The notes below the pieces were generated by a model. The model ran no database searches. It was not told the origin of the DNA and worked only from the letters and a program-made list of their open reading frames with translations. The position numbers and the translations under genes are program-made. A stretch of DNA of 64,000 nucleotides from Escherichia phage FL31: the sequence record PP400782, one strand, 5' to 3'. This document shows, in pieces, positions 12,058 through 13,135 of the stretch. Position 1 is the first letter of the stretch. Each line of letters starts with the position of its first letter.

Positions 12058-12228
12058 TCATCAAGTTCGGATGTGTTAAATATAAAAAAAGTTTCGTTTG
12101 TTACCAAGCGTGATATGCGGAGTTAAGTCAATGTTATACAAATTAAGAATATCAGCAATAACCTGATTAACCGCTTTGTTAATTTTCACGCCAGACGATT
12201 CTGAGATGAATTCGTTGAAAGTTTTCAT
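12058..12228 (-). CDS. Small CTS-bearing ORF (56 aa) below ORF-track cutoff
   Basis: ATG 12226-12228; MKTFNEFISESSGVKINKAV...; early promoter TTTACA-N17-TATAGT at 12261-12289. Confidence 0.4.
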
Positions 12229-12252
12229 TTTAGGTTCCATTTGGTTGTTTTG

Positions 12253-12289
12253 ATAGGACTACTATAACATAGTCCTATCATGTTGTAAA
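12253..12289 (-). promoter_or_regulatory. Early promoter with perfect 8-bp stem-loop (ATAGGACT/AGTCCTAT)
   Basis: TTTACA-N17-TATAGT; arms at 12253-12260 and 12271-12278. Confidence 0.55.
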
Positions 12290-12601
12290 TTATTTTATGC
12301 CTTTAGAAGAAATGGTATTTTGGCGTTTGGCCCCTGTTTGTGAAAAATCGTGGTTATCGATTTGGTCAACTCTCATAACACCAAATGCGGATTTAATTTT
12401 GGCTTTTGAACCTTTTTTGATACTAATTATCATATAAGTATCATTTTTCTTATATTCGAAATTTGTTACTTCAACGCCTTGATTAGAAATTGACTTAATA
12501 ATAGCATTAGCGTATTCATCATCTAATGGACCGGTAGTGTTAATAATAAAATTTTTATCTGGTTTAGTAGCTTCAGCGATAAACTCTTGATAAGTTTTCA
12601 T
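12290..12601 (-). CDS. CTS-bearing internal protein at the ipI locus (103 aa)
   Basis: Trimmed to ATG 12599-12601 (MKTYQEFIAEATKPD...), exact T4 IP leader; sits where T4 encodes ipI. Confidence 0.6.
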   Translation of the reverse strand: MKTYQEFIAEATKPDKNFIINTTGPLDDEYANAIIKSISNQGVEVTNFEYKKNDTYMIISIKKGSKAKIKSAFGVMRVDQIDNHDFSQTGAKRQNTISSKGIK

Positions 12602-12630
12602 TTGTTTTTCCGTTTGGTTTGTGATTTGAT

Positions 12631-12666
12631 AGGATGATAGTAACACACCATCATCCTTATGTAAAC
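12631..12666 (-). promoter_or_regulatory. Early promoter with 8-bp stem-loop (AGGATGAT/ATCATCCT) for the ipI-locus CTS gene
   Basis: GTTTACA-N18-TACTAT; arms 12631-12638 and 12650-12657. Confidence 0.5.
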
Positions 12667-12679
12667 TGTTTTGTGAAAA

Positions 12680-13135
12680 TTATTTTAGATCTTCGGCCCA
12701 ATCTAGTTTTAAGGGTTCTTTGTATTCACGGTCGAGAATAACCGGAATAGCTACATCACCACTGAATGATAGTTGGCCAACGTTATATGATAACGTTATA
12801 TGTGGAGTGTAGTCGTCGAAATCATGAGTAGCACCTAAAGCTCGTGCGTACTGATGACGACATCTAAGATATTCGGAATCAAGAACTAAAACCAGTACAG
12901 CGCCGTCATCGGTTTTCCATACCTCAAGGTGTCCTGATTCGGCAACAGAATAACTACCACTAGATGTAGTATATGGTATGTTTACACGTGAATAACAAAT
13001 TGTTGAATGAAGCTTTTCACGTGGTACTGGATTAGGAATTCTTAATTTGCGCTGGAGGTCTTCCAGCGCATCAAGTGTTAATTCCGAAAATTTAGCTGCG
13101 ACGTAGAGGCCTTGTGAAAAGTCCTCAAATTTCAT
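12680..13135 (-). CDS. 57B: 2H phosphoesterase, T4 57B/Acb1-like
   Basis: 151 aa with two H-x-T/S-x motifs (HSTICY, HITLSY); immediately upstream of 57A as in T4; ATG overlaps 57A stop (TAATG). Confidence 0.7.

Follow-up and report, generated by a model that had tools for sequence, protein, structure and literature searches.

An acb1 gene, an Ip7 cassette and a frameshifted Ip9 cassette at the 57B-trna.4 locus of Escherichia phage FL31

Which genes lie between 57A and trna.4 in Escherichia phage FL31, and which of them might counter host defences? This question was taken up in a 64,000-nucleotide stretch of sequence record PP400782 (the window, numbered from its first letter), where a first-pass annotation made from the letters had described positions 12058-13135 as an anti-defence locus consisting of ipI, 57B and an extra leader-bearing open reading frame (ORF). 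Megablast of positions 11000-13400 against 50,697 phage records returned Mosigvirus genomes over the full length at 96-97% identity, the best relatives being vB_Eco_F27, PTE-Eco05, PHB12, SF and mogra, and RB69 at 96% identity with 89% of the query covered. On these alignments, the window is assigned to an RB69-like Mosigvirus with the arrangement usual in Tevenvirinae, 57A - 57B - ip cassettes - trna.4/.3/.2. We consider it highly probable that this locus holds an intact acb1 gene, an Ip7 cassette and a frameshifted Ip9 cassette, and that payloads are swapped there by way of a promoter, hairpin and leader module. [quoted passage not shown]

12680-13135, minus strand: 57B/Acb1, predicted 2H-phosphoesterase anti-CBASS nuclease of 151 amino acids, tetrad H43, T45, H112, T114
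12631-12665, minus strand: PeSL-type element upstream of Ip7, TTTACA-17-TACTAT with TG, 12-bp hairpin (12657-12646 / 12642-12631) over the spacer and -10
12290-12601, minus strand: Ip7-family internal head protein gene, 103 amino acids, ATG at 12601, leader MKTYQEFIAE, payload of about 93 amino acids
12251-12289, minus strand: PeSL-type element upstream of Ip9, TTTACA-17-TATAGT with TG, 12-bp hairpin (12280-12269 / 12262-12251) over the -10
11964-12228, minus strand: Ip9-family internal head protein gene, frameshifted; 5' ORF at 12076-12228, 50 amino acids, leader MKTFNEFISE
12084-12090, minus strand: homopolymer, T7 in the gene and A7 on the plus strand, where a +1 insertion disrupts Ip9
11924-11960, minus strand: PeSL-type element upstream of trna.4, TATACA-17-TATAGT with TG, weaker hairpin, left boundary of the variable cassettes

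The identification of 12680-13135 as 57B/Acb1 with two HxT motifs, already proposed in the first-pass annotation, was confirmed by Pfam, PDB and alignments with T4 and RB69, all of which agree. The protein matched the Acb1 family PF23474 across the whole profile (1-144/144, E=7.4e-59, 198.1 bits against a curated Pfam cutoff of 27 bits) and the crystallised Acb1 homolog of Erwinia phage FBB1 (PDB 7t26, E=3.5e-59; structures 7t26/7t27), and is 100% identical to RB69 57B and 86% (130/152) identical to T4 57B. The T4 protein was identified as Acb1 with the catalytic residues H44/T46/H113/T115 (Hobbs et al. 2022, PMC9117128). When the suggested alignment with T4 57B was run, H43-S-T45 and H112-I-T114 fell column for column on these four residues, indicating that the catalytic histidines are conserved and that neither HxT motif is lost. 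Compared with T4 57B (NP_049750), the gene has the same length, keeps the HxT/HxT tetrad and likewise overlaps the end of 57A, with no notable difference. It would be expected to encode a metal-independent 2H phosphoesterase whose tetrad cuts the 3'-5' bonds of the cyclic oligonucleotide signals of CBASS, with 3'3'-cGAMP and cUA, and also cAAA, as its probable substrates, so that the CBASS effector would never be switched on. Cleavage of CBASS signals has been demonstrated for T4 Acb1, the enzyme to which the protein here is 86% identical (PMC9117128), and T4 57B is conditionally essential on a CBASS host (HIDEN-SEQ preprint). From the T4 enzyme, we infer that 57B here is an active Acb1; being catalytically intact by sequence, it should allow the phage to evade many CBASS systems.

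The ORF that follows 57B belongs to the Ip7 family. Its product matched phrog_2667, 'internal head protein', over the full length (E=1.9e-38) and shares 95% identity with RB69ORF156c and 98% with 'internal head protein 7' of mogra. Across the family (RB69ORF156c; T2, RB32 and CC31; phrog_2667), full-length identity is 95-98% to Mosigvirus copies and 64-70% to Tequatrovirus/Karamvirus copies, and the name Ip7 is given to remoter homologs in T2, RB32 and CC31 as well as in many T4-like phages of Enterobacter and Citrobacter. The copy in the window shares the leader and the locus of the family, the RB69 copy having a 5-residue C-terminal extension. An AlphaFold2 model gave a ferredoxin-like core at residues 15-72 and a low-confidence C-terminal tail, and a PDB sequence search with Ip7 returned no significant match. 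The C-terminal 30 residues (73-103; 12290-12385) are nearly invariant in the family (FGVxRxDQIDNHDFxQTGxKRQNTI..GIK) and are predicted to be disordered by AlphaFold, with a predicted local distance difference test score (pLDDT) of 32-55; on this model, the tail could be a segment that folds upon binding its target.

The leaders of the two small ORFs point to the phage head. That of Ip7, MKTYQEFIAE, is identical to the T4 IPII and IPIII leader, MKTFNEFISE is the leader of Ip9, and both ORFs follow the pattern MKT(Y/F)xEF(I/L)xE with an (I/L)-x-E protease site, which in T4 is the established cleavage rule. Five ORFs of the window carry the leader motif, against an average of 0.015 per window in a set of 200 simulated with a Markov-1 model. 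Leader-bearing ORFs also make up a second ip locus, and the head-assembly genes lie further along the window:

42-620, minus strand: IPIII ortholog, leader-bearing, second ip locus, 93% identical to mature T4 IPIII
646-960, minus strand: leader-bearing ORF of 104 amino acids, second ip locus, no similarity to T4 IPII
1763-2044, minus strand: leader-bearing ORF of 93 amino acids, second ip locus, 47% identical to Bas37_0261
39397-46403, plus strand: head-morphogenesis block with gp20 portal, gp21, gp22 scaffold, gp23 and gp24
41623-42264, plus strand: gp21 prohead protease, Peptidase_S77, 2.5e-107
42298-43110, plus strand: T4_CASP scaffold

The IPIII gene is the sole ortholog of T4 IPI, IPII or IPIII in the window. 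A T4-type prohead protease and scaffolding core are encoded here, and since portal, prohead protease, scaffold and capsid genes are all present, so is the machinery to process the leaders. In T4, it is established that the capsid-targeting sequence is removed once it has led proteins into the prohead core (PMC3012670). The leader MKT(Y/F)xEFIxE would thus be expected to send each protein into the prohead core, where gp21 should cleave after Glu10, and the mature payload would then be injected along with the DNA.

The second small ORF had been annotated as an extra leader-bearing ORF at 12058-12228 with its own promoter. Its leader start at 12228 and its promoter hold, but its end does not: the first in-frame stop is the TAA at 12076-12078, and position 12058 is the third in-frame stop. 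Nor is the ORF an extra gene. It represents the 5' part of Ip9, a known gene named in 1994, in a copy that a frameshift has broken; three-frame translation placed the 3' part in the +1 frame, running to the original stop at 11964. The Ip9 family (UniProt Q38376, named from phage RB15; phrog_7673) is full-length in 26 related genomes, mogra and F27 carrying an intact 87-amino-acid ORF in the DNA alignment, while the 5' ORF here matched phrog_7673 (E=4e-21) over profile positions 1-52 of 90 only. Its leader and the first 40 residues of its payload are about 98% identical to the copies of mogra, F27 and SF, and it occupies the same slot between Ip7 and trna.4; the frame, however, is interrupted after residue 48, leaving the C-terminal half out of frame. 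The run at 12084-12090 is T7 in this phage, T6 and in frame in TH58, and T5C in mogra and F27, and the span compared is 281 nucleotides here against 280 in all 26 full-length phage records. The truncation removes the best-conserved half of Ip9 (SELDxNQxNNIxRFANDKGLRHExxGYKKYAIYLK) and, in the predicted fold, helix 61-73 together with the two final strands, so that the conserved C-terminal half has no intact reading frame in this copy. A separate candidate reading of Ip9 as a 2H phosphoesterase, raised by the string 'DLTPHITL', was rejected, as a conserved HxT/S motif together with the 2H fold was not found.

The explanation that competes most strongly with a genuine lesion is an error of sequencing or assembly at the homopolymer, in which case the real phage would carry an intact 87-amino-acid Ip9 and two functional injected proteins; we give this explanation substantial weight, if somewhat less than an even chance. 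The lesion, one additional base in a homopolymer of seven, lies at a typical error site, and the allele is unique among the 27 genomes with Ip9. It had no match in IMG/VR or in the JGI metagenome contigs, the in-frame allele having two matches in IMG/VR. Downstream of the T-run, moreover, the +1 frame differs from relatives at one or two amino acids, indicating no decay after the lesion. Against an error, the identical 54-amino-acid truncated product is annotated by NCBI for FL31, and in phage FL31 only, so the allele was submitted as such, although this may simply be the record from which the window comes; an exact-protein contig lookup for this product gave no match. Slippage from T6 to T7 is also an easy real mutation, and ip genes are non-essential on laboratory hosts and readily lost.

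The elements in front of the two ip genes and trna.4 suggest how different payloads come to occupy the same slots. A PeSL has been defined as TTTACW-N17-TAYWAT (T4/PST pair) with a stem-loop between the -35 and -10 or overlapping the -10 (Arbiol et al. 2010, Comeau et al. 2014). The full architecture, an intergenic early promoter and stem-loop followed by a Shine-Dalgarno sequence and ATG, was clearly present in two of the three copies. The element upstream of Ip7 folds at -15.4 kcal/mol (z=-2.7) and that upstream of Ip9 at -17.8 kcal/mol (z=-5.0), with 0/200 shuffled sequences folding as well as the latter, and the Ip9 promoter (12289-12261, minus strand) is the best-scoring site of the region, with 10/12 matches. 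A 43-nucleotide repeat family, D1, has three copies, upstream of trna.4 (the reference copy), Ip9 and Ip7, and a second repeat, D2, spans the ribosome-binding site and leader codons. In T4, the promoters in front of ipI and trna.4 have the same architecture and align with these elements.

Homology with related phages breaks off at these elements. Against RB69, it is lost at 11961, within the PeSL that precedes trna.4, and picks up again at 12202, inside the leader; against T4, it covers 11022-11905 and 12580-13400, leaving a variable block at 11906-12579. The breakpoints of both comparisons (11961 and 12202; 11905 and 12580) lie at PeSL elements and in the leader. RB69 has an Ip7-type gene (ORF156c) in its first slot and a genuine ipI ortholog in its second, and the RB69 IPI slot holds Ip9 in this window; as judged from the alignment, only the payload there has been exchanged, Ip9 for IPI. 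As with published PeSLs, the elements flank variable ORFs and the breakpoints of replacement between phages coincide with them. Unlike in the published cases, the conserved recombination substrate reaches about 30 nucleotides into the coding leader, one breakpoint lies inside an ORF, and the promoters are predicted from sequence. Each cassette would comprise a sigma-70-type early promoter within an inverted repeat, a ribosome-binding site, a 10-residue leader and an unrelated payload, and the conserved promoter, hairpin and leader stretch probably serves as the recombination substrate through which payloads are swapped between phages. Descriptions of hypervariability at the locus go back to Repoila et al. 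1994, a study cited in PMC12373910 and PMC3012670, and the locus presented here is a clean textbook case of payloads being exchanged while the promoter and leader module in front of them is conserved. In a separate observation, OLB35 (MH992122, L005:1503-1736) encodes an 'ip7 protein' of 77 amino acids that joins an Ip7-type N-terminal part to the C-terminal 33 residues of Ip9; no leader is annotated for this chimera and its record is flagged UNVERIFIED. It looks like the product of recombination between adjacent cassettes.

What the payloads do once injected was approached by analogy. Ip1, Ip2 and Ip3 of T4 each block one distinct GmrSD variant (PMC12373910), and Bas37_0260, encoded at this same locus, blocks McrBC (HIDEN-SEQ preprint). 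By this analogy, Ip7, and Ip9 when intact, most likely inhibit type IV restriction like these proteins, acting stoichiometrically against the modification-dependent (type IV) restriction nucleases with which hosts attack phage DNA whose modifications derive from hydroxymethylcytosine (hmC). Searches of the available literature returned no function for Ip7, Ip9 or ORF156c. A direct relationship to Bas37_0260 was considered and rejected, since alignment with Bas37 (KarlGJung, MZ501089) showed that the leader alone is shared.

The alternative, that Ip7 and Ip9 are not anti-defence proteins but DNA-condensing or structural head filler, or serve some other early host-takeover function, appears unlikely to us. 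It draws on the lack of homology to characterised inhibitors, on folds that are only generic (the predicted Ip7 and Ip9 structures are ferredoxin-like domains with no informative structural neighbours), on the lysine-rich composition of Ip7, and on leaderless relatives of Ip9 among the early genes of unrelated siphoviruses. It is opposed by the fact that all four Ips of known function are type IV restriction inhibitors, by the hypervariability of the locus between close relatives, as arms-race selection predicts, and by the dispensability of the T4 ip genes on laboratory hosts (PMC12373910).

Several observations weigh against our interpretation of the locus as a whole, in which an Ip7 and an Ip9 payload with a probable anti-restriction role are exchanged through PeSL cassettes. 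Neither Ip7 nor Ip9 has sequence similarity to IPI, IPII, IPIII or Bas37_0260, and confidence in the Ip7 model is moderate (pLDDT 67). The hairpin of the trna.4 element (z=-1.0) is no better than shuffled sequence, and the PeSL hairpins have no U-tract and were not detected as intrinsic terminators. Finally, the siphovirus homologs without a leader show that the payload is useful without injection, and the target of Ip9 therefore need not be a restriction enzyme.

These homologs extend the Ip9 domain beyond T4-type phages, and this wider distribution of the payload is a modest new point. Leaderless proteins of 72-74 amino acids occur in the Kagunavirus UTEC10 (L007:2004-2222) and the Seuratvirus KS_S4 (L008:1992-2216), and in the Ackermannviridae phage YX22 (L015:3625-6543) the domain forms residues 897-954, at the C-terminal end, of a 972-amino-acid protein whose N-terminal part is phrog_3867, with no assigned function. 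An Ip9 profile search of 1.8 billion representative proteins yielded only 18 clusters, all small and unannotated, and showed no fusion partner that was informative. This distribution suggests that a small phage domain already existed and was recruited when T4-type phages put it, as the Ip9 payload, behind the promoter and leader module. A bolder proposal, which we put forward tentatively and think doubtful as it stands, is that Ip9 is a portable counter-defence domain made into an injected effector by the addition of a PeSL and leader, and that Ip7 and Ip9 are two further families of modification-dependent restriction inhibitors. If it is true, their targets could show specificity for arabinosyl-hmC DNA, that of RB69-like phages.

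Returning to the broken Ip9 gene, its 50-amino-acid ORF might itself encode a functional short internal protein (mature length about 40 amino acids), or full-length Ip9 might be made by +1 ribosomal or transcriptional slippage on the U7 run. Both are improbable. The promoter, ribosome-binding site and leader are all intact, and UUU-UUU-U would permit re-pairing of tRNA-Phe in the +1 frame. The part cut off is, however, the most conserved in the family, with helix 61-73 and the final two strands of the predicted fold lost. The arrangement also occurs in no other genome and is thus not a conserved recoding site, and the 0-frame codon after the run, UAU, is common, and the sequence gives no hint of a pause that would promote slippage.

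We regard it as very improbable that 12290-12601 is the IPI of this phage, and hence a GmrSD-type inhibitor like T4 IPI*, for although it fills the first slot downstream of 57B, as T4 ipI does, and bears a capsid-targeting leader, its identity to T4 IPI is 26% and restricted to the leader, that leader has 10 residues, as in the IPII/IPIII type, in place of the 19 of the IPI type, its true ortholog is RB69ORF156c, which coexists in RB69 with a genuine ipI in the next slot, a tblastn search of the whole window with mature T4 IPI found nothing at E<=1, and each Ip inhibitor acts strictly on its own target and gives no cross-protection (PMC12373910). The first-pass annotation was accordingly right about the leader and the position after 57B and wrong about the ipI identity, which gives way to Ip7. 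The comparison with T4 IPI that it had called for found no payload homology in either small ORF (26-28% identity, in the leader only), and mature IPII likewise gave no tblastn match in the whole window. What T4 IPI/IPI*, the GmrSD inhibitor, and Ip7 share is a neighbourhood, an N-terminal capsid-targeting leader and probably a packaged, cleaved and injected lifestyle. In T4, IPI does inhibit a type IV restriction enzyme, but there is no IPI ortholog in the window and its GmrSD-inhibitor function is therefore not transferable to any gene here. The IPI of RB69 is reported to differ from that of T4 at four residues (PMC6024577). A phage without IPI and IPII, unlike RB69 and T4, may be sensitive to GmrSD of the CT596 and ECOR21 types, and their absence matters when host range is predicted for Mosigvirus phages meant for therapy. 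Ip7 and Ip9 are reasonable candidates for anti-restriction screens, although the value of the finding lies chiefly in annotation: the locus is already known, at least 96% identical to published genomes, and holds no surprise for a specialist.

The remaining genes of the region anchor the locus and place it in its family. Every gene of the region is on the minus strand, and the order (gene 1, 57A, 57B, the two small leader-bearing ORFs, three small ORFs, tRNA-Met(CAT) and tRNA-Arg(TCT)) matches that of T4 and RB69, with 57A as the upstream neighbour of 57B fixing the synteny:

13370-14104, minus strand: gene 1, deoxynucleoside monophosphate kinase
13720-13727, minus strand: T4-type late promoter consensus TATAAATA inside gene 1, exact match
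13135-13365, minus strand: 57A tail-fibre assembly chaperone, Pfam PF17594 GP57 (E=2.4e-24), 100% identical to RB69
11709-11894, minus strand: Trna.4 ortholog, 61 amino acids, 84% identical to T4 and 100% to RB69, phrog_1692
11346-11708, minus strand: Trna.3 ortholog, 120 amino acids, 38% identical to T4 and 93% to RB69, phrog_1411
11059-11349, minus strand: Trna.2 ortholog, 96 amino acids, 79% identical to T4, phrog_2023

The three small ORFs at 11059-11894 had been put forward as anti-defence candidates by association. That they exist is borne out, but the association is weakly founded, as they are orthologs of the conserved T4 genes trna.2, trna.3 and trna.4 and not variable cargo. The sole functional hint found is that T4 Trna.2 was enriched or co-purified in a DRT1 pulldown (PMC13275509). 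Trna.4 has two predicted hydrophobic helices, with Kyte-Doolittle peaks at residues 10-28 and 37-56; Trna.2 and Trna.3 had no Pfam or PDB match. An Rfam scan of 10000-14200 returned nothing beyond the two tRNAs. The late-promoter motif occurs 18 times in the whole window against 8.5 expected, and transcription from the copy inside gene 1 might read through 57A, 57B and the ip genes late in infection.

Two differences between records were also noted at the tRNA end of the locus. RB69 (L001:1545-2060) has an additional 516-nucleotide ORF151c between tRNA-Met and trna.2 that is absent here (11052-11061) and in mogra and F27, and its presence or absence is a further indel in the same hyperplastic region. 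The F27 record (L003, OP870146; locus 1557-1808) annotates tRNA-Arg and tRNA-Ile2 on the plus strand, overlapping the trna.2 region, unlike the window and mogra, in which the tRNAs lie upstream on the minus strand. This placement is probably an annotation offset in OP870146.

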